Part shown: one piece after another, positions 8,199-39,269 of the stretch
Layout of the letters: each line of letters opens with the position of its first letter
Position numbering within the stretch: position 1 is the first letter of the stretch
Source: Chlamydiia bacterium
GTDB taxonomy: Bacteria > Chlamydiota > Chlamydiia > Chlamydiales > SM23-39
DNA: 39,269 nucleotides
Assembly: GCA_016194825.1 (NCBI GenBank)
Contig: JACQAR010000094.1
Coordinates: 1-39,269 of the forward strand
Direction: 5' to 3'
Notes under the pieces: generated by a model
Databases searched by the model: none
What the model was told of the DNA's origin: nothing
The model's input: the letters and a program-made list of their open reading frames with translations, nothing else
Program-made: the position numbers and the translations under genes

Positions 8199-8207
8199 GA
8201 GTTTTAG

Positions 8208-12738: not shown

Positions 12739-13412
12739 GCTTTTTTCCCTGTGCAAACAATGAATAGATAGTGAGCAAGTTTAGAAAATCCTGTGTGGAC
12801 GACCTCATCATTCATGGAAAAGAGGAGGACCGTATGAAAATAGTGCTTCCATAGATTCTGTAAGTCTTCTCCCGATTTACAGTTCACATGGCCAGCTTTA
12901 GAGCCTGCGGAAGCATAAACTTGCGATTCTAAGGAAGGGCAGCCGATGACTGCGATTCCATTTTGACTCATGGAGTCTCTTATGTTGAGAATGAAGCGTT
13001 TTTCATCTTTAGGATGAATGTGTTCAAAGACATCGCACGAATATACCCCATCAAAAGAACCGGGAACGGGGGCCGATAGAATGTCATGAATACGGTAAGA
13101 GATAGGCCATGTGCTTTTCTGTTCCCTTCGGATACAGTCTTCAATGAAAATGGGATCGATGTCAGTGGCCACTACTTCAGGGACTGCTTGTCGGACGATT
13201 CTGGTTCCAAAAGCATCTGCACAGCCAATCTCTAAGGCATTACGACATCCGGTGAGCATTTTGGAAACAAATTTGTACCGAGATAAGAGAAAGACCAATC
13301 TCTTTGGGTCTGTTTGCCAAACGAAATTGCTCATAATCCCAAACTCAGATCGACCAAATTTTTCATCGATTTCCAGACACGGCATGTATTGTTTTTCAAA
13401 TGTCTCTTGCAT
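12735..13412 (-). CDS. Class I SAM-dependent methyltransferase
   Basis: Motifs ALEIGCADAFGTRIV (motif I) and FDGVYSCDVFEHI (motif II/III region). Confidence 0.65.
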   Translation of the reverse strand: MQETFEKQYMPCLEIDEKFGRSEFGIMSNFVWQTDPKRLVFLLSRYKFVSKMLTGCRNALEIGCADAFGTRIVRQAVPEVVATDIDPIFIEDCIRREQKSTWPISYRIHDILSAPVPGSFDGVYSCDVFEHIHPKDEKRFILNIRDSMSQNGIAVIGCPSLESQVYASAGSKAGHVNCKSGEDLQNLWKHYFHTVLLFSMNDEVVHTGFSKLAHYLFIVCTGKKA

Positions 13413-14644
13413 TATTCCACTCGTAAATTCGGCAGAGGGATGAGGAATTTCCCTCCGGCATTTTTATAGGCTTGGTTCTTTTTCATAATCGCATCGGCGA
13501 AACGCCAAGCAGAAATGATGGTCAGGCTGGGTTGGTATTTGAGAAGGGAGTCTGAGGCAAGTACTGGGGTGAAGTAGCCTGGGCTCAACCGCTTTTGTCT
13601 CAGCGGGTTATCGTCGACAATAAAGGAGATCTGATCGGAGATGCCCAGCATTGCATTCAAAACAGTGCTTGTTGCGGAAGCGCCATACGCAGCAATCCGA
13701 TGTCCTTGAGCCAATTCTTGTTGGATTTTCTCCTGCAACTGGGATCGGATCGCATCGATCTTCTTTTCTAGTTTTGCATAAGTTTCTGCATCATAAAGGC
13801 CGCTCTTTTTTTCCTCCGCAATCATTTTCTCAACGGTGGGAGAAGGGGCTATGGGATTGGTGGCCTTTATCGCATAGCATCGGATGCTGCCGCCTTTGGT
13901 TGCAATTCGCTCTACATCGATGAGTTTGAGATCGCAGCTTTGCATGAACTGTTGGAGAGGGAGGATGCTGTGATAGCAGAGATGCTCATGGTAAATGTAA
14001 TCGAGCACTAAGTTTTCCACCGTGTCTTTTAGATAAGATACTTCAAAAACGAAAGTGCCAGTGTCTTTTAATAAAGCGTGAACAGAGAGCGCAAATCCAC
14101 GGAGATCGTCGGCATGGGAAAAGACGTTATTCGCCGTCACTAGATCCATTTTCCCATATTTTTCGGAAATTTTGTTGGCGAGAGAGGCGTTGAGAAAGCC
14201 TACTTCGGTATGGATGCCACTGGCTTTTGCTAAAGAGGCTACATATTGCGAGGGATCGACGCCTAGTACCTGGAATCCAAGGTTTTTGAATTTGGAGAGG
14301 AGCAATCCATCATTGCTGCCGACATCGAGGACATGGGCTCCCTTCGCCAATTTCAGTTGCTTGGCTACGTGAGATGCGTAAGCGGTAAAATGGGCATCTA
14401 AGTCGGGAGAGCTAGAAGAAGTGTAGATATAGTTTCCATAGAGAATATCGGGAGATACGACATCCAGTAATTGGGCATGCCCACATTTTTTGCACATGTA
14501 TAAATCCATGGGGAAATGAGGCAGGGAAAGTTCGTCATCTTCCAACTTCCTAAAATTATCTACCGGAGGGGAAGATGGCATCTTCAAAATCAGGTTTACA
14601 TTTTTTGAATGGCAAAGCCTACAGTGGTCGTTTTTGCTGATCAT
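13412..14644 (-). CDS. NDP-hexose C-methyltransferase (TylCIII-like), copy 1
   Basis: N-terminal Cys4 zinc ribbon CRLCHS...CKKCGHAQ, SAM motif VLDVGSNDG, and a long C-terminal domain. It is a paralog of 28376-29569. Confidence 0.7.
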   Translation of the reverse strand: MISKNDHCRLCHSKNVNLILKMPSSPPVDNFRKLEDDELSLPHFPMDLYMCKKCGHAQLLDVVSPDILYGNYIYTSSSSPDLDAHFTAYASHVAKQLKLAKGAHVLDVGSNDGLLLSKFKNLGFQVLGVDPSQYVASLAKASGIHTEVGFLNASLANKISEKYGKMDLVTANNVFSHADDLRGFALSVHALLKDTGTFVFEVSYLKDTVENLVLDYIYHEHLCYHSILPLQQFMQSCDLKLIDVERIATKGGSIRCYAIKATNPIAPSPTVEKMIAEEKKSGLYDAETYAKLEKKIDAIRSQLQEKIQQELAQGHRIAAYGASATSTVLNAMLGISDQISFIVDDNPLRQKRLSPGYFTPVLASDSLLKYQPSLTIISAWRFADAIMKKNQAYKNAGGKFLIPLPNLRVE

Positions 14645-18533: not shown

Positions 18534-19561
18534 GGTGCACTCATGTCGATGATGGGACGTAAGGTGTGTCCCTGTTCGAGATCGCTCAACGCTTGTTCAA
18601 TCTGAGATAAGCTATAGCTTTTGCCGATTAGAGGTTTCACATTGAGTTGTCCGTAGTGAATCAAATTGCAATAGCGAGGATAATGCACATCGGGGTGATT
18701 GTCGCCTCCCCAGGTTCCCAAAATGCGCTTTCCCTGGTTCAATTCTTTTGGATCCAGAGACCAGAAGTGTTCTTGTTTTGCATTGCCGATGATCACAGCA
18801 GTTCCTCCCTGAGAGCGAACCGATTTGAGTGCTTGGTTCATGACGGCAGGGTGACCGCTTGCCTCAATGGCGTAATCGAGAGGGCCGATTTTTTGAATGG
18901 CTTGGATGGGATCTTCTTTTGAGGCATCGATGACGTGGGTGGCGCCCATTTGTTTTGCGCTTTCGAGCTTAGAAGCTTGGATATCAACAGCAATGATCGG
19001 CACGCAGCCGGCGATAGCTGCTCCTTTAATTGCGCAAAGACCAATGCCGCCGCATCCGAAGACGGCCAAACTCTCTCCGGCTCGCGGTTTTGCTGTGTTA
19101 AAAACTACTCCCAAGCCTGTTGGAATGGCGCATCCGAGTAAAGCGGCCTCCTTCATCGGGAAATCATTCCGAATGGGGGTGAGGCGATTTTCGCTGATGA
19201 TCGAATATTTGCTAAATGTTGTAATCGCACCTGCATTGACCTTTTGCCCTTTCCAATCGAAAATCGAACCGGCGATATTCGCGCCTGATCCTTTAATCCA
19301 GGAGAGAATGACTGCATCACCTGGCTTGACTTTTTCTACTTTTTCTCCCACTTCCACCACGACTCCACTGCCTTCATGTCCCAAACAGTGAGGAAGGTAG
19401 GGGTCTTTGCCCCGATGGCCTCGGTATTCTAAGACTTGGGTATGGCAGACGCCGCTATATTTGACCTCAATGAGGACTTGTCCTGGCTTTAGCGGGGGCA
19501 GAGTCAGGGTATCAATCACAATCCGATTGATATCAACGAGGATGGCTGCTGGTGTTTGCAT
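18530..19561 (-). CDS. Zinc-dependent medium-chain alcohol/polyol(-phosphate) dehydrogenase
   Basis: Motifs GVCHTQ, GHEGSGVVVEVG (zinc ligands), and GCGGIGLCAI (NAD(P) Rossmann). Confidence 0.8.
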   Translation of the reverse strand: MQTPAAILVDINRIVIDTLTLPPLKPGQVLIEVKYSGVCHTQVLEYRGHRGKDPYLPHCLGHEGSGVVVEVGEKVEKVKPGDAVILSWIKGSGANIAGSIFDWKGQKVNAGAITTFSKYSIISENRLTPIRNDFPMKEAALLGCAIPTGLGVVFNTAKPRAGESLAVFGCGGIGLCAIKGAAIAGCVPIIAVDIQASKLESAKQMGATHVIDASKEDPIQAIQKIGPLDYAIEASGHPAVMNQALKSVRSQGGTAVIIGNAKQEHFWSLDPKELNQGKRILGTWGGDNHPDVHYPRYCNLIHYGQLNVKPLIGKSYSLSQIEQALSDLEQGHTLRPIIDMSAP

Positions 19562-20471
19562 AAAAACCTATTTTTTGTTCGATCCGATTAGCGATAGCTT
19601 GTGGGGTCAATCCGAATTGCTCTCGGATGTATTTTTGTGAACCGATGGGATGGGGAAAACGATCTTGCGTCCCGATGCGAAGCAGAGGGGTCGTGATCGA
19701 TTGATCCACAAGCCATTCAGCGACTGCAGAGCCGAAGCCTCCCATCAAACTGTGTTCTTCCAGCGTGACAAGCAGAGAAAAACGATGAGAGATATCTTGC
19801 AAGAGCTCGGTATCTAGGGGCTTGACTGTATGCATGCTGATGATGGCAGGAGGTTCTTTCAAGAGTTTTGAGGCTTCCATTGCTACTGAGAGCATATTCC
19901 CTGTGCTCAAGATGCAAATTTCTGTGCCTTTTTGAATCCAAGATCCTTTGCCGATCGCAATCTCTGGTACGGAAGAATAGATTTGCGGCTCGCCTGTTTT
20001 CCCAATCCTCATATACATGGGGCCAGGCCAGTTGAGACTTGCCCGCAAAAGAGCTCTTAGCTCCAGAGCATCGGCTGGACAAAGAACAGTCATATTGGGG
20101 ATGGTTCTGAGAAAGGCAATGTCCTCGCAAGAGTGATGCGTGCATCCCAAAGAAGCGTAAGAGAGGCCAGCACCCGTTCCTACAATGAGGACAGGAACTT
20201 GGTGGTAGCAAATATCATCTCGGATCTGCTCTAGACAGCGGGTTGTATTGAAGGGTGTGATGGTATAGGTGATGGGTCTCAGCCCACACATGGCCATTCC
20301 GGCAGCGACACTGGCCATATTGGCCTCGGCCACGCCGCAGTTGAAAAAACGGTTGGAGAATTTTGTTTTGAAGGGCTCGAAGAGCCGGTTCCCAATATCC
20401 CCTGAAAGCAGGACAATCCGAGAGTCGCTTCCCGCCAGTTGGCCAATTTCATCTGCAAATGCATTTCTCAT
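19533..20471 (-). CDS. Transketolase, C-terminal (pyrimidine-binding) subunit
   Basis: FFNCGVAEANMASVAAGMAMCGLRP, typical of the split transketolase B subunit. ATG 20471 overlaps the upstream TGA by 1 nt (the track's TTG at 20474 is an alternative). Confidence 0.85.
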   Translation of the reverse strand: MRNAFADEIGQLAGSDSRIVLLSGDIGNRLFEPFKTKFSNRFFNCGVAEANMASVAAGMAMCGLRPITYTITPFNTTRCLEQIRDDICYHQVPVLIVGTGAGLSYASLGCTHHSCEDIAFLRTIPNMTVLCPADALELRALLRASLNWPGPMYMRIGKTGEPQIYSSVPEIAIGKGSWIQKGTEICILSTGNMLSVAMEASKLLKEPPAIISMHTVKPLDTELLQDISHRFSLLVTLEEHSLMGGFGSAVAEWLVDQSITTPLLRIGTQDRFPHPIGSQKYIREQFGLTPQAIANRIEQKIGFYANTSSHPR

Positions 20472-21283
20472 CAAACACCTAGTTCCGCTTTTGCCTTGGC
20501 TAACTCTTCATCGTTCGGAATCCGGTAGTGCCAGTTGTTATCATCTCTCATGAATGAAACCCCTTCTCCTTTCACGGTATGCGCGATGATTGCGGTCGGT
20601 TTCCCTCTCGTTTCGGGGATCTTAGAAAATACGGACAAGATCTCCTGAAAATTGTGGCCGTCAATCTCATATGTTTGCCATCCAAAGGCTTCCCATTTTT
20701 CTTTCAAAGGAGACAGTTGCATGATTTCTTGGCTTCTCCCTGTAGCCTGCCATTTATTGAAATCGACAATAGCAATCAGGTTGTCTAATTTGCGGGCGGG
20801 AGCAAACATCGCAGCTTCCCAAACAGAGCCCTCATTGCACTCGCCGTCGCTCAAAAGAACCATGAGTCGGTACGATTCGTTGAGGATGCGCCCTGCTAAG
20901 GCCTGCCCAATGGCAACCGACAAGCCATGCCCTAGAGATCCGGTCGCCATTTCCACTCCCGATACGCATTTCGGAGTGGGGTGTTCCGGCAATGCCCCTC
21001 CATCTTTATTGAATGTTTTGAGCCATTCGCTAGGAAAAAATTTTCTCTTGGCCAAGAGTGCGTATAAGGTGCTGATTGCGTGACCTTTGCTTAAAATAAA
21101 ACGATCTCGCAGTCGGTGTTGAGGCAATTGGGGGTCAATCTGCAAGAATTCGTAATAGGCAGCGACGAGAATATCTACGCAAGATAGAGAAGAGCCTAGG
21201 TGAGGGGCTTTTCCTATTTTGGACATTTCAATGATTGTATAGCGGATTTCTCTTGCTATGCGTTGTAAATCTTCGATTTCCAT
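20471..21283 (-). CDS. Transketolase, N-terminal (ThDP-binding) subunit
   Basis: Motifs APHLGSSLSCVDILVAAYY and LLSDGECNEGSVWEAAMFA. The start is set at MEIEDLQRIAREIR (ATG 21283), which fits the family N-terminus. The track's start at 21331 would overlap the GT2 gene by 76 nt. Confidence 0.85.
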   Translation of the reverse strand: MEIEDLQRIAREIRYTIIEMSKIGKAPHLGSSLSCVDILVAAYYEFLQIDPQLPQHRLRDRFILSKGHAISTLYALLAKRKFFPSEWLKTFNKDGGALPEHPTPKCVSGVEMATGSLGHGLSVAIGQALAGRILNESYRLMVLLSDGECNEGSVWEAAMFAPARKLDNLIAIVDFNKWQATGRSQEIMQLSPLKEKWEAFGWQTYEIDGHNFQEILSVFSKIPETRGKPTAIIAHTVKGEGVSFMRDDNNWHYRIPNDEELAKAKAELGV

Positions 21284-22170
21284 AAACCTTTTCGCAGTTT
21301 TCTCGCGACTAAATGAAGAAAAGCACTCCATCGATTCGGCTTCAAAAATTCAGCAGGAATGGCTCTGAAAACCCATCCCAAAAGACAGGCGCGATAAAAC
21401 AGCTTTTGTGAGGGCTGTTGATCCAGAAATTTTAAAAATTGCCTGGCGCCCGCTTTTCTTGTTTCTTTCGTGCGCACGAGTTTAGCACTGTAAGAATGAG
21501 AATGGGAATAGAGATAGGCAAGAACTTCTGGGAGGTAAACGACCCCCTCATTGAGGGCGATATAATGAAAGAGATACCAGTCGCATTTTTCTCGGATTGC
21601 GGCCTCAAATTTTCCATATCGGATGACCGATTCTTTTTTGACGATTGTTGTGTGACCCGGGATCCAAAAGTTGGATGTTTGCAATTGCTTAATGAGCGTG
21701 TCTGGTTGCAAAACGACAGGAGCTGAGACTCCTTTTAAAAGGGGGAAGGAGAAGAGATGGGATCTTCCGGTTCGCTCCTCTACATACCCAAAATCAGAAC
21801 AACAGATTCCAATCGCTGGGTTTGCCAAAAGCGCCTCCATCGATTTTCTGAGGAACTGACGGTCTCGAAAATCATCTGCTGCGAGCCAATGGATGTATTT
21901 TCCCTGCGCCAGATCGATGCTATGGTTCACCGAAAAGTGGGTTCCTCGATTTTGTTCATAGAAAATGGGGCGGATATAGGGGTATTTGCGGGCATATTCC
22001 TGGATGATGTCTCGACTATTATCTGTGGAAGCATCATCAATGATAATCAGCTCCATTTGTTCAGAGGGGAAGTCCTGGATGAGAATGGAATCAATGGCAT
22101 CACGAATAAAATGTGCGTAATTGTAGCTTTGAATGACGACGGAAAGGAGCGGCTGTGATGACATTGCCAT
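21256..22170 (-). CDS. GT2-family glycosyltransferase
   Basis: LSVVIQSYNYAHFIRDAIDSILIQDF...LIIIDDASTDNS (GT-A DxD region). Confidence 0.8.
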   Translation of the reverse strand: MAMSSQPLLSVVIQSYNYAHFIRDAIDSILIQDFPSEQMELIIIDDASTDNSRDIIQEYARKYPYIRPIFYEQNRGTHFSVNHSIDLAQGKYIHWLAADDFRDRQFLRKSMEALLANPAIGICCSDFGYVEERTGRSHLFSFPLLKGVSAPVVLQPDTLIKQLQTSNFWIPGHTTIVKKESVIRYGKFEAAIREKCDWYLFHYIALNEGVVYLPEVLAYLYSHSHSYSAKLVRTKETRKAGARQFLKFLDQQPSQKLFYRACLLGWVFRAIPAEFLKPNRWSAFLHLVARKLRKGLWKSKIYNA

Positions 22171-28375: not shown

Positions 28376-29569
28376 ATGCAATGCAGAGTATGTGATCACG
28401 AAGAGTTCGAAGTGGGTGTCGATCTAGGAAAGCAGCCGGTGGGACTCCATTTCTTAAGACAAGAAGATGTGGGCAAAGAGCCCTTTTACCCGCTCCGTGT
28501 TTTGCTTTGTAAAAAATGTGCCACAGCGCAAATCGACTATACGGTCAAAAAAGAAGCGATGTACACGACCAATACCTACCTTTCGGGGATCACTCGCTCT
28601 CTCGCAGATCACTTCGATCGGGTGGCCAAAACCGTGGACGAACGTTTCCACGCCGACAAAAAGCAAAAGTCGGTGTTGGATATTGGCTCGAATGATGGGA
28701 CGCAACTCATTTCGTATCAAAAACTCGGCTATGATGTTTTAGGTGTGGAAGCGGCGCATAATGTAGTGGAAATTGCTGAAAAGAGGGGAGTGCCTACGCG
28801 GTGCGACTTTTTTAATCTAGAAGTAGCGGACAAGATTGGCCGCTCTTTCGATGTGATCAACGCTTCGGGCGTATTTTTCCATTTAGAAGAGCTCCACTCC
28901 GTCACTGAAGCGATCAAAAAATACCTAAAACCCGATGGTGTTTTCGTTGTGCAGTTTCTCTATATGAAAAAAATCATGGAGAATGTCGCGTTTGATCAGA
29001 TTTACCATGAACACCTACTGTATTACACGCTGCGCACGATCGATGTATTATTGAAACGGCATGGCCTGGAGCTATTTGATGCAGAGCTCGCTCCCATTCA
29101 TGGCGGCTCGATCATGGGATATGTGGGTCATATAGGCAAGCGGAGCCCAAGCGAGCGCCTTTTGCAGATGAAGCGAGAAGAAGAGGAATCTGGCTGCAAT
29201 GCGTTGGATGCTTATCGCCGTTTTGCCGAAAAAATCGCGCAATTAAAAGAAAAAAACCTCGCCTACTTGCAGCAAAAAAAAAGAGAAGGGAAGCGGATTT
29301 TTGGCATGGGAGCGCCTGTCAAGGGCAACACACTGCTCAACTATTTTGGCATTGGTAAGCAGTATCTGGATTGTCTTGTGGAAAAAAACGAACTGCGCCG
29401 CCATCTCTTTAGTCCTGGGATGCACTTGCCTGTGCTGATTGAAAAGGAGATCGCTCCTCCCGATGTCTACTACGTGTTGGCGTGGAATTTCAAAAAAGAG
29501 ATCCTACAGAATAACCAACATCTGATCCAAAAAGGGGTCGAATTCTTTTTCCCTATCGAGACAGCATGA
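28376..29569 (+). CDS. NDP-hexose C-methyltransferase (TylCIII-like), copy 2
   Basis: Zinc ribbon CRVCDH...CKKCATAQ, then VLDIGSNDGTQL. It is collinear with 13412-14644 (YHEHLLYYT versus YHEHLCYHS). Confidence 0.7.
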   Translation: MQCRVCDHEEFEVGVDLGKQPVGLHFLRQEDVGKEPFYPLRVLLCKKCATAQIDYTVKKEAMYTTNTYLSGITRSLADHFDRVAKTVDERFHADKKQKSVLDIGSNDGTQLISYQKLGYDVLGVEAAHNVVEIAEKRGVPTRCDFFNLEVADKIGRSFDVINASGVFFHLEELHSVTEAIKKYLKPDGVFVVQFLYMKKIMENVAFDQIYHEHLLYYTLRTIDVLLKRHGLELFDAELAPIHGGSIMGYVGHIGKRSPSERLLQMKREEEESGCNALDAYRRFAEKIAQLKEKNLAYLQQKKREGKRIFGMGAPVKGNTLLNYFGIGKQYLDCLVEKNELRRHLFSPGMHLPVLIEKEIAPPDVYYVLAWNFKKEILQNNQHLIQKGVEFFFPIETA

Positions 29570-30480
29570 AAATGTTAGTCACCGGTGCAAGTGGATTTTT
29601 AGGGAGATTTTTGGTGCCGCACCTCAAAAAAGAGGGGCATGAGGTTGTTGAAGTTTCTTCCAAAAACTGCGATCTGACGCAAGCCGACTCGCTGACCCAA
29701 TTCAATGCTCACCGCTTCGATCAGATCTACCATTTGGCCGCATGGACGCAGGCAGGTGATTTTTGTCTGCGCCATCCAGGAGAGCAGTGGCTCATCAACC
29801 AAAAACTCAACACGCATATGCTCGACTGGTGGCAGAAGCGTCAGCCGCAGGCGAAGATGATTGCCATGGGCACCAGCTGCTCCTACGATCCTCAGCTTCC
29901 TCTAGAAGAAAAAAATTATATGGTAGGAGAGCCGATCGATAGCCTCTTTACCTACGCGATGACCAAGAGAATGCTCTATGCAGGTCTTATGGCTTTACAT
30001 AAGCAATATGGACTGGAATTTCTCTATGTGATTCCTTCTACTTTATATGGCGGCGGCTATCATACCGACGGAAGACAGCTCCACTTCATCTTCGATTTGA
30101 TCCGGAAGATTCTCCGAGGCAAGCTCTACGGCGATGCTGTCGTGCTGTGGGGCGATGGGATGCAAAAAAGAGAGCTCGTGCATGTGCAAGATTTCATCCA
30201 GAACTTACAGCTATTGGCGGAAAGGGAAAAAAATACCTTGATCAACATTGGCGAGGGAAAAGAGCATTCTATCCGAGAGTATGCCCAACTGATCTGCGAA
30301 GAGGTGGGCTATCCATTTGAGAAGGTGCAATTCGATGTGTCCAAATATGTGGGGGCTCGCTCGAAGGTGCTCTCCATTCAGAAGTTGCAGCACATTCTAG
30401 GGCACTACTCGACTGTTCCCTTGAAACAAGGGATCCGAGAGGTCATTGCGTGGTTTCAAGAGCATTCGGAAGTTTTGTAA
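29566..30480 (+). CDS. GDP-L-fucose synthase-family (Fcl/WcaG-like) nucleotide-sugar epimerase/reductase
   Basis: Motifs VTGASGFLGRFL, HLAAW, MGTSCSYDPQLPLEE and YAMTKRM (YxxxK). The layout is typical of Fcl and related GDP-6-deoxyheptose reductases. ATGA overlap. Confidence 0.65.
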   Translation: MKMLVTGASGFLGRFLVPHLKKEGHEVVEVSSKNCDLTQADSLTQFNAHRFDQIYHLAAWTQAGDFCLRHPGEQWLINQKLNTHMLDWWQKRQPQAKMIAMGTSCSYDPQLPLEEKNYMVGEPIDSLFTYAMTKRMLYAGLMALHKQYGLEFLYVIPSTLYGGGYHTDGRQLHFIFDLIRKILRGKLYGDAVVLWGDGMQKRELVHVQDFIQNLQLLAEREKNTLINIGEGKEHSIREYAQLICEEVGYPFEKVQFDVSKYVGARSKVLSIQKLQHILGHYSTVPLKQGIREVIAWFQEHSEVL

Positions 30481-31457
30481 AAAAGTGCCCTTTTTTCTTT
30501 GTGAACCGGATGCGGTGGGAAGAAAAGAGACGCTCTCCTCTGCCTAGCTGGGCCCAAGTCCGCATTGAGGGACCCAATGACGTGGCAAGAACCGTTGCTG
30601 AAATCGAGCGGTGTGGCTTGGGGCAAGCGGCGCAGCTGACCCGATTTTCGATCCAGAAGGGGCGCATCGTTTCTCCGACGATCCAGCAAGCATGGCAACA
30701 CCCTCGCGTTCTTAAGATGCGATTTTTTATCCAGAGACTGTTGCCTTTGCCAGATGTGGAGTTTTTGTTCACGAGTCACGATTTGTACGAAGATCCACAA
30801 TTATTGGCGTGTACCCATGCTCCTGTATTTGCGATTTCTAAAACGTCTCAAAATGCAAAGGTCGTCCTATTCCCTCATGTAGAATGGCTCTTTCATTGGC
30901 AGCGGTTGAAGAGAAAACTCCAACAGCAAGAAATGGCATGGGAACAGAAAAAACCTGTGCTCTTTTGGCGGGGAGCGACGACTGGCTTTACATCAAGGTA
31001 TCCGATTGTTCAGCTCTCTCGAAAATATCCCGAAGAAATCGATGCTCTTTTTTCCTCTTTCCCGCAAATCGATGAGGCCGTCCAGAGACGGCTGATGGAG
31101 GAAAATCTTGTCGGACAGGGGGTTGCTGAAGAGGCTCAAGCGCAATTTCGGTATCTGTTATCGCTCGACGGCAATTGCTTTGGCGGCTCGTTCTTTTGGC
31201 AGTTGGCGAGCGGCTCGGTCGTGTTTAAGCAAGATTCCGATTACCAGGAATGGTACTATCCGGGTCTATCTCCCTATGTCCACTACATTCCTTTTGCTCG
31301 CAATGGCGCGGAAAAAAAAAAAAAAAAGAGGTGGCCCGAAACGCACGAAGAAGAGTGCAAGGGATTGGTGAGGAGCGCGATAAAATTCTCGGAGGAGATT
31401 TTGTCGGTAGAGGCTATGATGGCCTATGCCGACTATCTGTTGCATCAGCTTATATGA
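30450..31457 (+). CDS. GT90 / CAP10-domain glycosyltransferase (eukaryote-type lipopolysaccharide-modifying family)
   Basis: LFWRGATTG...RYLLSLDGNCFGGSFFWQLASGSVVFKQDSDYQEWYYPGLSPYVHYIPF matches the CAP10 core. GTG 30450 has GAGAGG upstream, and ATG 30510 is an alternative start. The gene contains the A16 tract. Confidence 0.6.
   Translation: MVSRAFGSFVKKCPFFFVNRMRWEEKRRSPLPSWAQVRIEGPNDVARTVAEIERCGLGQAAQLTRFSIQKGRIVSPTIQQAWQHPRVLKMRFFIQRLLPLPDVEFLFTSHDLYEDPQLLACTHAPVFAISKTSQNAKVVLFPHVEWLFHWQRLKRKLQQQEMAWEQKKPVLFWRGATTGFTSRYPIVQLSRKYPEEIDALFSSFPQIDEAVQRRLMEENLVGQGVAEEAQAQFRYLLSLDGNCFGGSFFWQLASGSVVFKQDSDYQEWYYPGLSPYVHYIPFARNGAEKKKKKRWPETHEEECKGLVRSAIKFSEEILSVEAMMAYADYLLHQLI
31312..31327 (+). 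repeat. Homopolymeric A16 tract inside the GT90 CDS
   Basis: Counted directly as g-a(16)-gagg. It is read as E-K-K-K-K-K-R. All three forward frames are open across it. Confidence 0.95.
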
Positions 31458-32530
31458 AATATCTGATCCAAAACCGCTTTTCTCTGGCTGTCATGAAGAC
31501 GATGGATGGGTTGTTGCGCTTCTTCACCCGGCATCGGCGGGAATTTCCGATAGAAAAAGCGCCTCAGAAAATTTTGGTTTGCAATACAGGATTTATGGGA
31601 GACGCGGTGATTGCGACAACGGTCCTCCCTGCTCTTAAAAAAAAGTTTCCCGATGCAAAAATTGGCTTTTTAGTGGCGAGCAAGTCGGTCCCAGTAATCA
31701 AAGAGCTTCCCGAGGTGACATGGATCCACTCTTTTGATCATGGGTATGTGAACAAATCGCTCAAACAGCATCTGCAAACAGCTCGGACAGCGCTGCAAGA
31801 GATCCGAGCAGTAGGCTATGATGTCGCAATCAATCTGCAGCCTTATTTTCCGAATGGGATCGGACTGTTATATCGCTCGAAAATCCCTGTGCGGATCGGT
31901 TATGCAACGGGAGGACTGGGCCCTCTATTGACGCACTGCGTTCCTTTTGCCGGAACGGAAAAGTACATCGGGTTTGCGTTTTTGAAACTTCTGCAGCCCC
32001 TGCATATCGCTGCGGAATTCGAATCGCCTTTGCCCTATTATGCATGCAAACAACAGCAAACAGATGCCTTTGTCATCCACATGGGCACCTCTTCAGAGTT
32101 GAAAGAATGGCCATTCGAATCGTGGAAAGAGCTGATCAAACTGCTCGGCGATAGACCGCTCTTTTTCACAGGACAAGGGGAGCGTGAATGGGAGCGAGCA
32201 GACGCCGCTTGTCAATTGGCAAAAAATGGGATAAATTTGTGTAACCGGCTCAACTGGCGTCAATTTGTGGAAACAGTACAACAAGCAAAGTGTCTCATCA
32301 GCGTCGATTCAGCAGCCATCCATGTTGCTGCGGCAGCCAAGGTGCCGACAGTCGCTCTTTTTACAGGTATCGCAGACATGCGCCTATGGCTTCCTCCTCA
32401 CCCTCATTGCAAAGGATTGATTCATAAAGTACTCTGCTCGCCTTGTTTGAATAAACGGGGCTGTGCATTCATGGCTTGCATCCGGCAGATCACGCCCAAA
32501 GAAGTATTAGCTGCGGTAAAAAGTTTATGA
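31454..32530 (+). CDS. GT9-family glycosyltransferase (LPS heptosyltransferase-like), copy 1
   Basis: The start is set at MKYLIQ (ATG 31454), which forms an ATGA overlap with the GT90 stop. Motifs GFMGDAVIATTVLPALKKKFPDAKI and SVDSAAIHVAAAAKVPTVALF (GT9 signature). The track ORF extends upstream to 31250 only because the frame is open. Confidence 0.75.
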   Translation: MKYLIQNRFSLAVMKTMDGLLRFFTRHRREFPIEKAPQKILVCNTGFMGDAVIATTVLPALKKKFPDAKIGFLVASKSVPVIKELPEVTWIHSFDHGYVNKSLKQHLQTARTALQEIRAVGYDVAINLQPYFPNGIGLLYRSKIPVRIGYATGGLGPLLTHCVPFAGTEKYIGFAFLKLLQPLHIAAEFESPLPYYACKQQQTDAFVIHMGTSSELKEWPFESWKELIKLLGDRPLFFTGQGEREWERADAACQLAKNGINLCNRLNWRQFVETVQQAKCLISVDSAAIHVAAAAKVPTVALFTGIADMRLWLPPHPHCKGLIHKVLCSPCLNKRGCAFMACIRQITPKEVLAAVKSL

Positions 32531-34323
32531 GATTTCCCCATATCCGTCACATTCTGCTGGGCAAAGCGAGCAAAAATTTATGGCCCTTTTCTCTCATGGC
32601 GGGACTCAATTTTATTTCCGCGCTCTTTGAGGGGTTGACCTTTGGATTTATCTTACTGGCGATGGGGGAATTGAGTGGAGGACAAAAGGGAGAAACAGGG
32701 GCTTTTTTGACTTGGGTCATGCACTACTTCCAGCTACAGGGAAGCTTTACCCTGTTCATTGTAGCCGGTGTCTGCATGCAAATTTTACGGAGTATGACCG
32801 CCTATGCCGGACAATATACTTCGATGATACTCGGGATTCGGATCCAGAATGAGGCGCAAGAAAAGATCTATTCCCAGATCTTGAAATTCTCTTTTGCCTG
32901 TGTCAATCGGTATAAAAGTGGAGATCTGCTCGAATACGCAAAGATGCCCGCTACCATGACAATGCCTCTGATGAATGCGCTGAACGGACTTGTGGTGTCT
33001 GCGCTGATGATTTTGATCCAACTCTGGATGATGGTCTACTTGTCTGTGCCACTCACTCTTTTAGTGATTGTGACGTTTGGCTCCATTACTTTGACGCAGA
33101 AAGTGGTGATCCGACGTATTTCCAAATACTCTCAGCACCTCCAAGAGCACATCGTCGATTTCAGCAAGCAAACCGTGCAAAGTTTGAATGGACTCAGAGC
33201 CATTCACACATTCTGTCGCCAAGCGGCGGTGATGGAGCGCATCCGGGGGACATTGGGGCGGATTGCAGAGCTGTCCAAGAGAATCATGCTCTGGAGTAAC
33301 ATCATCCCCTCCTTTAATGAAATCACCGGAATTAGTCTGGTCGCCGTATTTTTAGTGGTGGGACAAACGATTCTCTCTTCATCGGCCATTCCACTGCTTT
33401 TGACATTCATCCTCATTTTATATCGGCTGAATACTCGCATTCAGATGTTTCTGGTCAATCTCGGCGCGATTGCAGGCAATTGGGGGCAGGTGCTGCGGTT
33501 AGAAGAAATTCTAGATGAATCGGATAAGCAATTTATCTCCCATGAAGGGGTGCCTTTCCCCGGACTGCAGCATGTCATGGAGTTTCGAGACGTCTCTTTG
33601 AAGTATGAAAATACGAAAGAAGATGCGATCCGTTCCTTGCATGTGACCATTCGGAAAGGACAGACAGTGGCCTTTGTCGGCTCTTCTGGCGCAGGTAAAT
33701 CGAGCTTTTTGGATCTGTTACTGCGGCTCTACGATCCTACAAGTGGCCGCATTACCATCGATGGCATGGATCTGCGCACATTTGAGCTCACTTCTTGGCG
33801 CGATAAGATTGGGATGGTGAGTCAGGACACCTTCATTTTCAACGACACCATCGAAGAGAACATCCGCTTTGGGAAATTGGATGCGAGCAAAAAGGAAATT
33901 GAGCAGGCCGCCGTGTGGGCGCACGCCGACCAATTCATCGAGCGGTTGCCCGATGGCTATCAAACGGTATTGGGAGAGAGAGGATATCGCCTGTCGGGTG
34001 GACAAAGACAGAGGATTGCGTTGGCTCGTGCTTTGGTCCGCAATCCAGAGATTTTGATCCTCGATGAAGCCACGAGTAATCTTGATAGCCAATCGGAACG
34101 GGCCATCCAAAATGCCTTGGCACAGTTCTACGGACAAAAGACTCTGATCATCGTGGCGCATCGTCTCTCTACGATCTTCCACGCAGACCAAATCATTGTT
34201 CTGGAGCGTGGCTCTTTTATTGAAAGCGGAACACACCAAGAGCTATTGGAGACGAAGGGTCGTTATGCCAGCCTTTGGAACATCCAGTCGCAGCATGTAG
34301 ACAATATCTATGCGCGCGAATAA
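32527..34323 (+). CDS. ABC exporter, fused TMD-NBD half-transporter (MsbA-like)
   Basis: The start is set at MRFPHIR (ATG 32527), which forms an ATGA overlap. It has six hydrophobic segments, then Walker A GSSGAGKSS, signature LSGGQRQRIALARAL and Walker B ILILDEATSNLD. Confidence 0.85.
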   Translation: MRFPHIRHILLGKASKNLWPFSLMAGLNFISALFEGLTFGFILLAMGELSGGQKGETGAFLTWVMHYFQLQGSFTLFIVAGVCMQILRSMTAYAGQYTSMILGIRIQNEAQEKIYSQILKFSFACVNRYKSGDLLEYAKMPATMTMPLMNALNGLVVSALMILIQLWMMVYLSVPLTLLVIVTFGSITLTQKVVIRRISKYSQHLQEHIVDFSKQTVQSLNGLRAIHTFCRQAAVMERIRGTLGRIAELSKRIMLWSNIIPSFNEITGISLVAVFLVVGQTILSSSAIPLLLTFILILYRLNTRIQMFLVNLGAIAGNWGQVLRLEEILDESDKQFISHEGVPFPGLQHVMEFRDVSLKYENTKEDAIRSLHVTIRKGQTVAFVGSSGAGKSSFLDLLLRLYDPTSGRITIDGMDLRTFELTSWRDKIGMVSQDTFIFNDTIEENIRFGKLDASKKEIEQAAVWAHADQFIERLPDGYQTVLGERGYRLSGGQRQRIALARALVRNPEILILDEATSNLDSQSERAIQNALAQFYGQKTLIIVAHRLSTIFHADQIIVLERGSFIESGTHQELLETKGRYASLWNIQSQHVDNIYARE

Positions 34324-35437
34324 ATGGCTCCATTTCTTCGATCGGTATGGAGGAATCCCTCTTCTGTGGGCTTTGGGGCTATTGCGAAGGAAAAAAAAAC
34401 TTTCGGCTCCCATTGCGAGCTTCGGACTGCTCAATACCGCCGCTATCGGTGATACCATTCTCATCACCGGTGTGATCGCCGATCTGCAAGAGCAGTTTCC
34501 TGAGGCTAAAATCACGTTTTTTGTCGGCCCTTCCAACGTAGAAGCCGCACAACTCATTGCGGGGATCGAAGTAGTGCAGATCCAGGTGACCAAGTTGTGG
34601 CAGGCAATCCGAATCATCCGGCATCATCGAGTGGATGTGTGGCTTGATTTTGGCCAGTGGCCGAGAATCAATGGGCTCTTTTCTTATTTTGCCAAGGCTC
34701 GTTTCAAAGTGGGTTTTCAGACACCCAACCAGTATCGGCATTACATCTATGACCAAGCCATTCCCCATCGATACTGCCATGAATTGGAGAATTTCCGCAG
34801 CCTCCTGTGCCCTCTGGGGATTGTTGGGTCGCATGCCCCAAAGATTGTATTGCCACAGAGAGAAAAATCAGATGTAAAGCTGGCTTTACATTTGAATCCG
34901 GGTGGATCGCAAGCGCACCTGAAGCGGTGGCCAGAAAGTCATTGGGTCGCTTTGATTGATGCGGTAACCAAACAGGGATTGCAGGTTTTCCTAACAGGAG
35001 GAAAAGGGGATTGGCCCTTGTGCGAACGTGTGAAGAAACAGTGTGCGCAGCCTGAACAGATTGCGATTGTCGCAGGGCAGTTGTCCCTTCGGGAAACCGG
35101 CGAGCTGCTCTTATCTTGTGTTGCTCTGGTCACGGTGGATACGGGGATTATGCATTTGGGGGCGGCAGTTGGGTGTAAGACCTTGGCTTTACATGGTCCG
35201 AGCTCTGCAAAACGTTGGGGAGGGGTTGGATCGCATGTCATTCCGATCACGCCTAAAAAGGGCTATTCCCCCTGCTTGAGTCTTGGTTTTGAAAAGGGGT
35301 GCACGCAAAGTCACTGCATGGAAGCGATTGAGCCAAGCCAGGTGATGCAAGTTCTTTTCGAAGAAATAGAGAAAGAAAAAACCAAAAAAAGGCCATTGTC
35401 GGCAAATAGAGGATGGCTCCATCCGATCCACAGATGA
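34310..35437 (+). CDS. GT9-family glycosyltransferase (heptosyltransferase-like), copy 2
   Basis: Motifs AAIGDTILITGVIADLQEQFPEAKI, LHLNPGGSQAHLKRWP and TVDTGIMHLGAAVGCKTLALHGP. The last ~25 aa extend beyond the point where copy 1 ends, and they overlap the convergent gene. Confidence 0.75.
   Translation: MRANKWLHFFDRYGGIPLLWALGLLRRKKKLSAPIASFGLLNTAAIGDTILITGVIADLQEQFPEAKITFFVGPSNVEAAQLIAGIEVVQIQVTKLWQAIRIIRHHRVDVWLDFGQWPRINGLFSYFAKARFKVGFQTPNQYRHYIYDQAIPHRYCHELENFRSLLCPLGIVGSHAPKIVLPQREKSDVKLALHLNPGGSQAHLKRWPESHWVALIDAVTKQGLQVFLTGGKGDWPLCERVKKQCAQPEQIAIVAGQLSLRETGELLLSCVALVTVDTGIMHLGAAVGCKTLALHGPSSAKRWGGVGSHVIPITPKKGYSPCLSLGFEKGCTQSHCMEAIEPSQVMQVLFEEIEKEKTKKRPLSANRGWLHPIHR
34872..34891. repeat. 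Inverted pair D of the GCTTTACAT word
   Basis: atgtaaagc-tg-gctttacat has perfect 9-nt arms and a 2-nt spacer. It lies inside GT9 copy 2, where it encodes DVKLALHL. Confidence 0.85.
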
Positions 35438-36521
35438 TCAGGTAATTGATGAGTCCTAATAAGAGCGTCTTGTGTGTCGTACTCAAATGCCTGCGACATC
35501 CCTTGATCAACAGGGCCGAGAACATCGCTAGAAAGAAACCAAATACTCCTAACCACCCAAATGATTCAGCCACACCAGCATAGATAACCTCCAAAATGCC
35601 TTCAAAGGGTTTATTCGATAAAAATCCGGTATCGCTAAACATCTGGTCGATGTGCTGTCTTCTGCCTCCGAAGGATGTGTCCACAAAAAATTGAAATGAA
35701 AATCCAAAGAAACGCCCGAAAGCCAATAAAAATAGGGCCACTGCACTCACCGCAATCGCCATTTTCACAATGGCCTTTGCCTTATCCTTCAGAATGAACC
35801 AAGGATAGAGGATTTCATGCAAAAGAAGTCCGATCCAGACCGTGCGTGAGAGGGTCAATAGAAACGAGAGTTTTACAATCCATTGGCAATAGCGCCTTCT
35901 TTCCAAATAGCAATACAGAGACAGCGCCATGATCAAGCAAGCGCCGTAGAGATTCCCATTGTTATAGGTCGAGATCAGTTTAAAGATGCTGCCGCGGGCA
36001 ATACTTTTGTTTTCTAACTCCCCTACATCCCCCATATTCACAGTCAAAAGAGGGATTTGTAAAAATTTCCCCGTATAGAACTTTAGAAAGAACAGAGCGA
36101 TGCCGTAGCTGGCGATAAACAGCATTCCTTTTTTAAACAGATTGAAAAACCATTCTTGGTCGAGCTCTTCAATAGCTCGAGAAAAGAGTCCCAAAAATAC
36201 ATAGGGTAGGAAAAGAAAGCTGATCCAAAAAGAAATGGTCATCCCGAAATTCGAGATACCGTTCATCGCCATCGTATAGAAGGCGATGACTTGAAAGGGA
36301 ATCAAGAAAATCAGGGCCTGCAGGCGCTCTTTGTGGATGTAAAAAGGGCCTGCAAACAGGGTCCCCACCCCGATGCATCCGAGCAAAAGATATCCCCAAG
36401 TCAGCGGGATGCCTGCGAGTTTGATGCCGCCTTTGGGAAAAACCAGCAGAAAGGCAAGGAGCAGAAAGGCGTAGGGTTTCCAGTGAAAGAGCTGAATGCC
36501 AGGGCGGCCAAGGCGCATCAT
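35253..36521 (-). CDS. Polytopic membrane protein of the O-antigen ligase/polymerase (Wzy_C, WaaL-like) family
   Basis: It has roughly 10 or more hydrophobic segments and the block LSFLLTLSRTVWIGLLL, which resembles the conserved SR-containing loop/helix of Wzy_C proteins. It sits next to GT9 and ABC genes. Confidence 0.5.
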   Translation of the reverse strand: MMRLGRPGIQLFHWKPYAFLLLAFLLVFPKGGIKLAGIPLTWGYLLLGCIGVGTLFAGPFYIHKERLQALIFLIPFQVIAFYTMAMNGISNFGMTISFWISFLFLPYVFLGLFSRAIEELDQEWFFNLFKKGMLFIASYGIALFFLKFYTGKFLQIPLLTVNMGDVGELENKSIARGSIFKLISTYNNGNLYGACLIMALSLYCYLERRRYCQWIVKLSFLLTLSRTVWIGLLLHEILYPWFILKDKAKAIVKMAIAVSAVALFLLAFGRFFGFSFQFFVDTSFGGRRQHIDQMFSDTGFLSNKPFEGILEVIYAGVAESFGWLGVFGFFLAMFSALLIKGCRRHLSTTHKTLLLGLINYLIICGSDGAILYLPTMAFFWFFLSLFLRKELASPGLAQSLPCSDFACTPFQNQDSSRGNSPF

Positions 36522-36563
36522 GAACCTATCCCAGAATTCTTAATGATTGATCTTTGTGCGCTT

Positions 36564-39146
36564 TTAGCCGCTTTTTGTGCCTCCGGCCTCATCAAGATGA
36601 TCGTCCCAATATTGATTTCGGCCAACATTCGGCCCAAAAATCGGCTTAAAATCATCACAAATCTCAATGTTAAGAATTGCTAGCTTCTCATCGGGTTTGA
36701 TGAGTCGTTTATTCGCTTTGTCTTGCAATTTGTGCGTTTTGATGTAGTCCCAAATCAATTTCGTGGCTTCGGGTCGCGTGGCTTCTTTGACGCCGAGAAT
36801 GGAGGCCAGTTCACCTGACAATTTATACTTGAGCTGCGGGAAGGCCGATTTGCCCTTGCCTGTTGCTCCTTTTGCACCTGCTTTCCCTTTGAATTTCGAT
36901 TTTTTGACGTAGGCGGTTTTGGGATGGTCTTTATATTTTTCTCCAAGCTCGTCGAGCTCATTGACAATCACATCGCATTCAGGATAGTTCGAGCAGGAGA
37001 AAAAGGTTTTGCCAAAGCGCGATTTACGGGCGGTGAGATGGCCATCGCATCCAATGGCAGGACATGCAGGGAGATCTTCGGCTTTGTAGCTCTTTTCCCC
37101 TTTTTTCGGGATATTGACGATCCTTTTGCATTCGGGATAACGAGAGCAGCCCAAGAAGGGGCCAAACCGTCCATGTCGAAGGATCATCGGGGAAGAGCAT
37201 TTGGAACAGGGCTGTTCCCAATCAAAATTGGGATCGTAATCCTCTTTATTGAATTCGAGCGCTTCAATGGGTGCGGTAAATTCACAAACGGGATAGTTAG
37301 AACAGCCGTAGAAGTATTTATTGCGCGACCAAATTTTCTGGAGCTTGTGTCCACAGTTGGGACAGTCGATGAGTGTGGAAATTTTGGGGACAGAGGCCTC
37401 TTTTTCTGCTTTATCCACCAGAGGAGTAAATTCTTTCCAAAATGTCCTGAGCAGCTCTTTCCAATCGCGATTGTGCTCCGCAATTTGCTCGAGCTGATCT
37501 TCCATCTGTGCGGTGAAGGTCACATCCATGATGGGGGCAAAGTTCTGTTCCAGCATTTCGCAGATCACTTTCCCCAATTCGGTCGGTTTCAGGGTTTGGT
37601 GCTCTTTCACCGTGTAATCGCGGCTTTGGATCTTGTTCATGATGGCCGCATAAGTAGAGGGTCTTCCAATCCCTAGTCGCTCGAGTTCTTTTACTAGTGA
37701 TGCTTCTGTAAAGCGAGGAGGTGGTTTTGTGAAAGACTGTGTGGGGGTGAGCTGATTCAAACGGAGTGGTGAACCGCTGTGTAGAGAAGGAAGGATTTTC
37801 CCATTTTCATCCTCTTCTTCAGAGCTCGTATCCCTTCTCTCTTCATAGGCAGCTAAAAATCCATTGAACTTGATGACGGAACCATTGGCTCTTAAGGTCA
37901 GGTTTTGGTCCGTTTCAATGTCGGCAGAGACTGTGTCATAAATCGCAGGATTCATCTGTGATGCGATGAAGCGGCGCCAGATGAGGAGATAGAGCTTGTA
38001 CTGATCGCTGGTCAGATAGGCTTTGATTTTTTCGGGGGCGCGCAAAAGGCTCGTTGGCCGAATGGCTTCGTGCGCTTCTTGGGCGCTTTTTTTCGAGGCA
38101 TAGATGCGGGGCTGGTCGGGAAGATATTCAGGCCCAAAATGGCTCCCAATGTATTTGCGTGCAGAGGAAATGGCTTCAGGGGCAATGTTGACCGAATCGG
38201 TACGCATGTAGGTGATCAACCCTTCCGTGCCTTCCGCGTCCATATCGATCCCTTCATAGAGATCTTGTGCAATGCTCATCGTGCGCGATACGGCAAAGCC
38301 ATAGTGGCGGCTCGCCTCTTGCTGCAGCGTAGAGGTGATGAAAGGAGGAACGGGATTTCTCTTCTTCTCTTTTCGCTCGACATCCCCCACTTTGTATTGG
38401 GCTTTTTTTAGTCGTGAGAGGAGTTCTTGGGCCGTTTCCTCATTCGGGATGAGAAAGCAGGGCTTATCGCCTACCTTTTCTTTTTCTACCTTCAATCCGT
38501 TGACGAGATTCAAAAAAGCAGGAAAAGGACGAGGATCGTCAGGGGTCGTTAAGAGGGCGGTGAGTGTCCAATATTCGATTGGTTGGAATGCTTCGATCTC
38601 TTTTTCGCGCATCACCACCAGTTTGAGAGCGACCGATTGGACTCGCCCTGCGGAAGAGCCTTGTTGGCCTCTTTTGACTTTGCGGGTGAGAATGGGAGAG
38701 ATTTTGTAGCCTACAATCCGGTCGAGGAGTCGTCTGGCTTGCTGTGCATTGACGAGGTCGATGTCGATGTCGCGGGGGTGAGCAAGCGCCTCTTGCACCG
38801 CATCTTTGGTGATCGACTGGAAAGCGGTCCGTTTGATCTTGGTCGTTTTGGGCAGAAGCGCGGCAATGTGCCACGCGATGGCTTCCCCTTCGCGATCAGG
38901 GTCAGGAGAGAGGTAGACAATATCTGCTTTTTTCGCAGCATCTTTTAGCTTCTGAATCACTTCCTTTTTATCAGGCAGCGTCACATACTTAGGTTCAAAA
39001 TCATGCTCGACGTCAATCCCAAACTCTTTCGCTGGCAGATCGCGGATATGCCCGATCGAAGACTCAAAAGAAAAATTAGGCCCCAAAAACTTCTTGAGTG
39101 TTTTGATTTTTGCCGGGGATTCTACAATGACAAGAGCTTTAACCAT
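36564..39146 (-). CDS. topA: DNA topoisomerase I with C-terminal SWIB domain
   Basis: The start is set at MVKALVIVESPAK (TOPRIM). Further motifs are DPDREGEAIAWH and the active-site region GLITYMRTDS. There are three Cys4 ribbons (CPNCGH..CSNYPVC, CSKCSS..CSRYPEC, CPAIGCDGH..CSNYPEC), a Lys-rich linker, and a SWIB-like segment LSGELASILGVKEATRPEATKLIWDYIKTHKLQDKANKRLIKPDEKL. Confidence 0.9.
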   Translation of the reverse strand: MVKALVIVESPAKIKTLKKFLGPNFSFESSIGHIRDLPAKEFGIDVEHDFEPKYVTLPDKKEVIQKLKDAAKKADIVYLSPDPDREGEAIAWHIAALLPKTTKIKRTAFQSITKDAVQEALAHPRDIDIDLVNAQQARRLLDRIVGYKISPILTRKVKRGQQGSSAGRVQSVALKLVVMREKEIEAFQPIEYWTLTALLTTPDDPRPFPAFLNLVNGLKVEKEKVGDKPCFLIPNEETAQELLSRLKKAQYKVGDVERKEKKRNPVPPFITSTLQQEASRHYGFAVSRTMSIAQDLYEGIDMDAEGTEGLITYMRTDSVNIAPEAISSARKYIGSHFGPEYLPDQPRIYASKKSAQEAHEAIRPTSLLRAPEKIKAYLTSDQYKLYLLIWRRFIASQMNPAIYDTVSADIETDQNLTLRANGSVIKFNGFLAAYEERRDTSSEEEDENGKILPSLHSGSPLRLNQLTPTQSFTKPPPRFTEASLVKELERLGIGRPSTYAAIMNKIQSRDYTVKEHQTLKPTELGKVICEMLEQNFAPIMDVTFTAQMEDQLEQIAEHNRDWKELLRTFWKEFTPLVDKAEKEASVPKISTLIDCPNCGHKLQKIWSRNKYFYGCSNYPVCEFTAPIEALEFNKEDYDPNFDWEQPCSKCSSPMILRHGRFGPFLGCSRYPECKRIVNIPKKGEKSYKAEDLPACPAIGCDGHLTARKSRFGKTFFSCSNYPECDVIVNELDELGEKYKDHPKTAYVKKSKFKGKAGAKGATGKGKSAFPQLKYKLSGELASILGVKEATRPEATKLIWDYIKTHKLQDKANKRLIKPDEKLAILNIEICDDFKPIFGPNVGRNQYWDDHLDEAGGTKSG

Positions 39147-39163
39147 ATATGTAAATCGGTCAG

Positions 39164-39192
39164 ATGGTAGCGGATTCTCAGACAAAGTACAA
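39164..39192 (-). promoter_or_regulatory. Possible promoter for topA
   Basis: On the minus strand: TTGTAC (39192-39187), a 17-nt spacer, then TACCAT (39169-39164), 17 nt upstream of the ATG. Pattern match only. Confidence 0.25.
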
Positions 39193-39269
39193 GTCTGAAA
39201 CAAGAACCTATCCCATTAAAAGGGTTTCGTCGCTTTTGCGGATTATTTTGGCCGCTTTTCGATTCAAAA

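Follow-up and report, generated by a model that had tools for sequence, protein, structure and literature searches.

The window analyzed in this study is a 39,269-nucleotide (nt) stretch of contig JACQAR010000094.1, which was obtained from a groundwater metagenome and represents an uncultured member of the Chlamydiota. On its plus strand, the window carries 16 consecutive A residues (A16; 31312-31327) within the open reading frame (ORF) of a glycosyltransferase gene of the GT90 family (30450-31457). A16 exceeds the published thresholds for RNA-polymerase slippage (approximately 9 nt) and ribosome sliding (approximately 11 nt); hence, unstable and attenuated expression and heritable ON/OFF frameshifts are expected. 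In our judgment, the chances are even that GT90 is expressed at a low and noisy level because of the tract and can be switched heritably via replication slippage, with the current majority genotype being ON. The gene is thus proposed as a plausible new candidate for a homopolymer contingency locus in a glycosyltransferase gene, which is a well-known class. Within this class, it would be unusual in that the tract consists of A instead of G or C, is located toward the 3' end, codes for part of a helix, and belongs to an environmental Chlamydiota host. If the tract varies, uncultured environmental chlamydiae would diversify a complex lipopolysaccharide (LPS)-like surface glycan through the stochastic switching known from free-living mucosal pathogens. 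Such switching would be unexpected, since the best-known members of the phylum make a minimal, invariant LPS. A variable tract would also be a natural case of one A run acting at the DNA, RNA, and ribosome levels together.

An A16 homopolymer lies in frame within the GT90 gene

In the GT90 frame, the tract and its flanks read GCG GAA AAA AAA AAA AAA AAG AGG TGG, which is translated into A-E-K-K-K-K-K-R-W. By direct sequence and homopolymer census, the run itself spans GA[A AAA AAA AAA AAA AA]G and covers E-K-K-K-K-K. The census of the whole window identified A16 as the sole run of more than 9 nt. The second-longest homopolymers are all of 9 nt, namely T9 at 16197 and A9 at 29274 and 34391. The number of A16 runs expected from the base composition of the window is 1.6e-5. 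The initial annotation had described a run of 16 A at this location that encodes EKKKKKR in the GT90 frame and is the longest in the window, with all others at 9 nt or less; each of these statements was confirmed.

In the related loci (approximately 100 kb, some with a G+C content of 26-29%), the longest homopolymer is 10 nt. Judging from these loci, runs above approximately 10 nt seem to be generally purged. Since the maximum is 10 nt even in the relatives with 26-29% G+C, the persistence of A16 here needs either recency or benefit. The codon AAA accounts for 70% of the lysine codons in the window, and, apart from K5, the 37 ORFs examined have no run of more than three lysines. The unusual feature is the peptide, not the codon choice.

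The tract exceeds the published slippage thresholds

In A/T runs, insertions of one nucleotide predominate during transcription, and their frequency climbs exponentially as the run gets longer; coding runs reach at most 9 nt in Escherichia coli and 11 nt in Buchnera (PMC5574713). When nine A/T follow one another, slippage gives rise to mRNAs with extra bases, and the E. coli coding sequence contains a single AAA_AAA_AAA (PMC5009743). E. coli ribosomes slide on iterated AAA codons, and a robust truncated product is formed from A11 upward in an E. coli cell-free system (PMC4363877). A16 is well above the thresholds for both processes, in agreement with the earlier remark that long A runs provoke transcriptional slippage.

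Frame outcomes of changes in tract length

Past the tract, frame 0 continues for 42 more codons and ends at the TGA stop codon at 31455-31457. With one A fewer, frame 1 is entered; its first stop codon (31369-31371, +) is reached after 13 foreign codons, and GT90 is truncated. With one A more or two A fewer, translation enters frame 2. This is the frame of ORF 31250-32530, which runs into the downstream gene of the GT9 (heptosyltransferase) family (31454-32530, +; 358 amino acids; PF01075, E 2.5e-22) and ends at 32528-32530. Between the tract and the GT9 start, frame 2 has 42 open codons (31328-31453, +), over which frame 0 encodes the last three helices of GT90. The predicted frame-2 product comprises approximately 693 amino acids counted from the GTG at 30450. 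The initial annotation had named the two genes GT90 and GT9 and had given a frame-0 stop at 31457, a frame-1 stop at 31371 with loss of about 40 C-terminal residues, and a frame 2 open into the GT9 ATG at 31454, which would yield a fusion frame of roughly 690 amino acids. The identities hold (PF05686, E 4e-29, for GT90), the stops and the open frame were recovered, and the exact loss is 42 residues.

Both the +1 and the -1 variants drop the 42 C-terminal residues, that is, the three helices, and retain approximately 87% of the GT90 protein in the OFF state. Based on the structural model described below, loss of GT90 activity is likely in either frameshift state. In the -1 state, translation ends 83 nt 5' of the GT9 start. 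No Shine-Dalgarno (SD)-like sequence was found in the 24 nt before the GT9 ATG, and the GT90 stop codon overlaps the GT9 start codon (ATGA). Because GT9 lacks its own SD sequence and overlaps GT90 in this way, its translation is probably coupled to that of GT90.

The following mechanism is proposed. Replication slippage would generate heritable +1 and -1 variants in which GT90 is most likely OFF, and further slippage would restore the ON state. According to the published thresholds, slippage of RNA polymerase should give every genotype a mixture of mRNAs that differ in tract length; insertions of one A would be the commonest and would lead into the GT9 frame. Ribosomes would be expected to pause and slide on the four or five iterated AAA codons, so that less full-length protein is made. 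The net effect would be a low, noisy, and heritably switchable GT90 and, with it, a phase-variable accessory sugar on the surface glycan. The truncated product and a GT90(deltaC)-GT9 read-through product would be by-products of the OFF states. In view of the missing GT9 ribosome-binding site and the ATGA overlap, the -1 state may also lower GT9 translation.

GT90 is an intact member of its family

The GT90 gene encodes a CAP10/POGLUT-like protein of 335 amino acids from GTG 30450. The match to PF05686 (Glyco_transf_90) has 102 bits against a cut-off of 24 and extends over residues 59-333 of 335. A profile built with the homologs retrieved human POGLUT2 (6e-48) and POGLUT1 (2e-43) from the PDB. 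The AlphaFold (AF2) model has a predicted local distance difference test score (pLDDT) of 86.6 and a predicted template modeling score (pTM) of 0.85, and the top Foldseek matches of this model are again POGLUT2 and POGLUT1 (9w47 and 5l0r; E 1e-20, TM 0.74-0.75). By profile and model, the protein is assigned to the GT90 family with a POGLUT-like GT-B fold. GTG 30450 is the best start codon because an SD-like GAGAGG (30437-30442, +, direct sequence) precedes it at a spacing of 7 nt and because the N-terminal homology to relatives (K11, P14) extends 5' of ATG 30510. Nothing SD-like was found ahead of the alternative starts GTG 30501 and ATG 30510.

Only 18 GT90 homologs were recovered from 5.8 billion proteins; the closest are metagenomic and 45-48% identical. 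In the alignment with eight homologs, there are no gaps across the tract, and frame-0 homology is present on both flanks. Twenty-eight columns are invariant over the nine aligned sequences, including that of the window. In the model, the tract forms the first turns of helix 269-278, which is followed by helices 280-297 and 300-314. These three C-terminal helices lie within the Pfam domain and hold columns conserved in all homologs. Exact-protein look-ups of the window GT90 and GT9 returned no match. A scan of genome contigs for strains of the same species gave one distant match only, and a scan of metagenome contigs gave eight loci, all with an identity of 44% or less.

GT90 is absent from the closest syntenic operons

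The upstream member of the operon is a gene for an NAD-dependent epimerase/dehydratase (29566-30480, +), whose end overlaps the GT90 start. Downstream of GT9 lies a gene for an MsbA-like ABC exporter (32530-34323, +), and the operon also holds a second GT9 gene and a Wzy_C-like gene. The two related loci with the closest GT9 (L012 and L013; 56-57% identity) have the order GHMP kinase (minus strand), C-methyltransferase, epimerase, GT9, and ABC, and their neighboring genes are 70-81% identical to those of the window. No trace of GT90 was found in these two syntenic operons. There, the epimerase gene directly abuts and overlaps GT9 (3197-3200 in L012 and 3304-3307 in L013), and in the window a whole GT90 gene sits between the two and overlaps both. 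By comparison of the three loci, the difference amounts to a clean gene-sized insertion here or a clean deletion in both relatives; that is, the gene was gained here or lost twice. Its absence from the two closest syntenic operons marks GT90 as an accessory, dispensable gene, the usual target of contingency loci. In other lineages, GT90 stands beside an MsbA-like transporter and not beside GT9. Composition gave no signal of a recent foreign origin of GT90, as its G+C content (48-52%) is that of its neighbors.

The tract arose from a lysine-rich helix

At the tract site, one of the two closest homologs has D-L-M-K-K-K-K-W (GAT CTC ATG AAG AAG AAA AAA TGG), with an A run of 6. The other has D-L-I-K-K-K-K-W (GAT TTA ATT AAA AAA AAG AAA TGG), with an A run of 8. 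More distant homologs have K-D-L-I-[SA]-K-I-[HN]-W and A runs of 3-4, and human POGLUT2 has S-D-L-L-E-K-L-K-W. In the window, the conserved Asp-Leu-[Met/Ile] has become Glu-Lys-Lys, with AAA throughout. Given the lysine-rich site in the homologs, the tract arose at the start of an old lysine-rich helix. On this alignment, A16 is read as an outgrowth of a helix close to the GT90 C-terminus that was ancestrally rich in lysine (D-L-x-K-K-K-K-W).

Two further A runs touch on these gene families. The A9 at 34391-34399 (AGG AAA AAA AAA CTT, R-K-K-K-L) belongs to the second GT9 gene (34310-35437), where it occupies codons 28-30. It lies at the 5' end, the classic position of a switch, and its length is that of the lower slippage threshold. 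A GT90 homolog in the related locus L004 (35% G+C) contains an A10 at 3450-3459, elsewhere in the gene; none of the related loci showed a longer homopolymer.

Comparison with known systems

Membership was checked for four categories: contingency locus, transcriptional slippage, dnaX-type frameshift, and GT90 family. Homopolymer contingency loci in LPS and lipooligosaccharide (LOS) genes include the poly-G tracts of Neisseria lgtA/C/D, the poly-G tracts of Campylobacter, and the poly-C tracts of Helicobacter fucosyltransferase genes. We agree with the initial annotation that such a switch is classically found in glycosyltransferase genes of surface-glycan clusters. As in the three genera, the tract described here is an in-frame mononucleotide run in an accessory glycosyltransferase gene of a surface-glycan cluster; the gene is ON in frame and truncated by a change of +1 or -1. 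Unlike those loci, the tract consists of A instead of G/C, encodes a lysine run within a folded protein, lies near the 3' rather than the 5' end, and is a single tract in 39 kb that was read from an assembly alone.

Within the same phylum, deep reads of the Chlamydia trachomatis lpxC promoter tract consisted of 87% A12 and 9% A11, and CT166 carries a poly(G) ON/OFF tract (PMC4514472). One of the two concerns LPS synthesis, and heterogeneity at the read level is documented there. However, the lpxC tract is a promoter spacer and the poly(G) of CT166 is at the 5' end, and neither tract is 16 nt long or located in a glycosyltransferase gene.

The initial annotation had drawn an analogy to reduced endosymbionts. 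In common with Buchnera and Blochmannia, there is a long coding A run in an intracellular bacterium, and multi-frame mRNAs are expected (PMC5009743, PMC5574713). The Chlamydiota host agrees with this analogy, whereas a G+C content of 46% and the absence of other long A/T runs in the window do not. Buchnera and Blochmannia have many tracts and very A+T-rich genomes, and there slippage restores genes whose DNA carries a frameshift. In the window, a single tract is present and the DNA is in frame; hence, slippage would mostly lose function. With respect to the sliding of ribosomes along repeated AAA codons (PMC4363877, PMC4552401), the four AAA codons and the flanking A residues make up A16, which is above A11. 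A lower full-length output and out-of-frame termination would be expected; the effect was shown with E. coli and eukaryote reporters.

Alternative explanations

The main rival of a switchable GT90 is an incidental tract without any adaptive role. According to this explanation, drift to AAA codons throughout and slippage expansion would have produced the run in a dispensable gene under relaxed selection; the run would be mildly harmful, with lower and noisier expression, and the gene would be heading toward a pseudogene. We regard this as possible but rather doubtful. Several points speak for an incidental tract, against a switch, or both. Given E-K-K-K-K and the codon usage of the window, the probability of a pure A run is approximately 0.16; codon choice alone therefore requires no selection. 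The conserved D-L was overwritten by the tract, in which Lys replaces a Leu conserved in at least seven of the eight homologs. This Leu-to-Lys change is one of seven highly conserved columns at which the window GT90 deviates, compared with two to four in close relatives, and the overwritten Leu and the seven deviant columns also fit relaxed constraint. In favor of an incidental tract, the two closest syntenic loci lack GT90. Bacteria dependent on contingency loci usually have numerous tracts, but the window has a single long one in 39 kb. Against a switch, A/T runs are generally less mutable than G/C runs at the DNA level, and no length variation was seen in the public contigs of the runs that contain this organism, which leave 31156-31428 uncovered at both 90% and 80% likeness. 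An incidental tract in a decaying gene is nevertheless at odds with a gene that is intact, in frame, and in possession of the 28 invariant columns, with the uniqueness of K5 among the 37 ORFs, and with the absence of runs of more than 10 nt even in relatives with 26-29% G+C.

The coverage gap bears on a different explanation, namely that the length of the tract is an assembly or sequencing artefact and either the gene is truly out of frame or the A residues form a shorter run with an interruption. The tract length has a single source, which is the window assembly. The public data consist of five runs of one 2020 groundwater study, which contain parts of the window, as contigs only, at approximately 5x for the organism. 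In the main two of these runs, contigs end at 31122 or 31155 and restart at 31429 or 31438; the independent assemblies of both thus leave off 157-190 nt ahead of the tract and pick up again 101-110 nt past its end. The 306-nt stretch with the tract was absent from every indexed run, and none of the runs that contain the window sequence is an RNA run. However, the public contigs are broken up throughout, with 12% and 27% of words absent over 10 kb and many other gaps. Since fragmentation is found everywhere at this depth (approximately 5x, 19 kb compared), the gap is not specific to the tract and is evidence neither for nor against heterogeneity. It may stem from a loss of read quality past the run, which would halve the usable depth for approximately one read length per side. 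If the length were wrong at random, the frame would be lost in two of three cases, but the alignment is gapless and in frame at 16, with frame-0 homology on both sides; only errors by multiples of three would leave this intact, and others are therefore unlikely. A false join at a low-complexity word was ruled out by the same continuous in-frame homology. On these grounds, we consider an artefact improbable, and the homology identifies ON as the assembled majority genotype and 16 (mod 3) as a biologically sensible length. If the tract should prove invariant, it would simply be an unusually long lysine-coding run and a warning that the frame of the gene be checked against reads.

The initial annotation had further suggested that slippage can fuse GT90 to GT9. 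Its frame arithmetic stands, but a functional fusion is not supported: no GT90-GT9 fusion was found among 112 GT9 and 18 GT90 homologs, and the frame-2 linker peptide has no counterpart in GT9 homologs. We conclude that the fusion is apparently a by-product. A stronger version of the idea is programmed recoding, in which the tract, or the heptamer A_AAA_AAG at its 3' end (31322-31328, +), makes a functional fusion as a regulated second product, similar to dnaX tau/gamma or to transcriptional slippage in insertion-sequence transposases. The insertion of one A by RNA polymerase, the commonest slippage product, would enter the GT9 frame, as would a -1 ribosomal shift on the heptamer, which is in phase with the GT90 frame, and frame 2 is open for all 42 linking codons. 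However, of the comparable 42-codon stretches in the genes of the window, 17% are open in this offset frame by chance, the adjacency of GT90 and GT9 is itself not conserved, and the fusion would miss the last three conserved GT90 helices. The dnaX-type -1 site has the identical heptamer in phase, and the -1 shift here likewise leads to a long open frame. In contrast to dnaX, no stimulatory stem-loop was found downstream (31329-31400 folds at -15.1 kcal/mol, z = -0.61, and 55 of 200 shuffles fold as well), the position of the upstream SD-like stimulator falls inside the A run, and the -1 product is not conserved. Owing to the missing downstream structure, a dnaX-like frameshift cassette was ruled out, and programmed recoding in general is considered very unlikely. 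Two other roles were rejected. The frame-2 stretch is not a lost N-terminal extension of GT9, as GT9 homologs begin only approximately 5 residues before the ATG of the window. With respect to a UP element or promoter of GT9 in the tract, no promoter-like plus-strand site was found between the tract and this gene.

An extension of the switchable GT90 would be a three-state device in an environmental chlamydia, to which we attach hardly any probability. In frame, separate GT90 and GT9 would be made. With one A fewer, GT90 would be truncated, and the coupled GT9 and the downstream exporter would be turned down. With one extra A, the product would be a GT90(deltaC)-GT9 fusion whose activity is altered; slippage of the DNA could lead to this state, as could the error that RNA polymerase makes most often or a -1 ribosomal shift on the terminal A_AAA_AAG. 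If this were true, a single homopolymer would reprogram the outer structure of a surface glycan in a chlamydia, in heritable as well as non-heritable ways, and no contingency locus for LPS-like glycans would have been described earlier outside the Chlamydiaceae.

Host and contig context

The ORF at 36564-39203 (minus strand) encodes topoisomerase I with a C-terminal SWIB domain, an architecture described as unique to chlamydial TopA (PMC12445093). This architecture identifies the host as a member of the Chlamydiota. The named GT9 homologs include proteins of Chlamydiae/Chlamydiota metagenome-assembled genomes. The depth of the public contigs rises from approximately 5 to 11-39 over 36075-36717 and 38004-39269, with single contigs at 108-138. 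Many alternative joints and loose ends are present at the end of the contig and over the 5' portion of topA. Either this conserved stretch is shared by several related organisms in the samples or it is a repeat, which is probably why the contig ends here. No Rfam match was found in the window.

The surrounding glycan synthesis island

Nearly the whole window is occupied by a surface-glycan synthesis island of approximately 35 kb (2353-36521). It contains genes similar to those of the ADP-heptose pathway (SIS, 4331-4942; PfkB plus cytidylyltransferase, 4902-6452), three genes of the GT11 (fucosyltransferase) family (6499-9805), and a GT17-like gene (9869-10714). Also present are GT2, GT90, the two GT9, epimerases/dehydratases, several methyltransferases, a GHMP kinase, the MsbA-like exporter, and the gene for the Wzy_C-like membrane protein (35253-36521, minus strand). 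Several of the glycosyltransferase families in the island are mostly eukaryotic. The LPS of the Chlamydiaceae is minimal, and the gene content of the island suggests a far more elaborate LPS-like glycan. At 19533-21331 (minus strand), a split transketolase-like pair (the half with the pyrimidine-binding and C-terminal parts lies at 19533-20474) occurs together with an alcohol dehydrogenase and a phosphotransferase. The split pair and the C-methyltransferase genes at 13412-14644 and 28376-29569 hint at an unusual branched or C-methylated sugar. Outside the island, a ThyX-like ORF (681-2318) of 545 amino acids has two matched Thy1 stretches and approximately twice the usual length, and it appears to encode a tandem-duplicated or fused ThyX.

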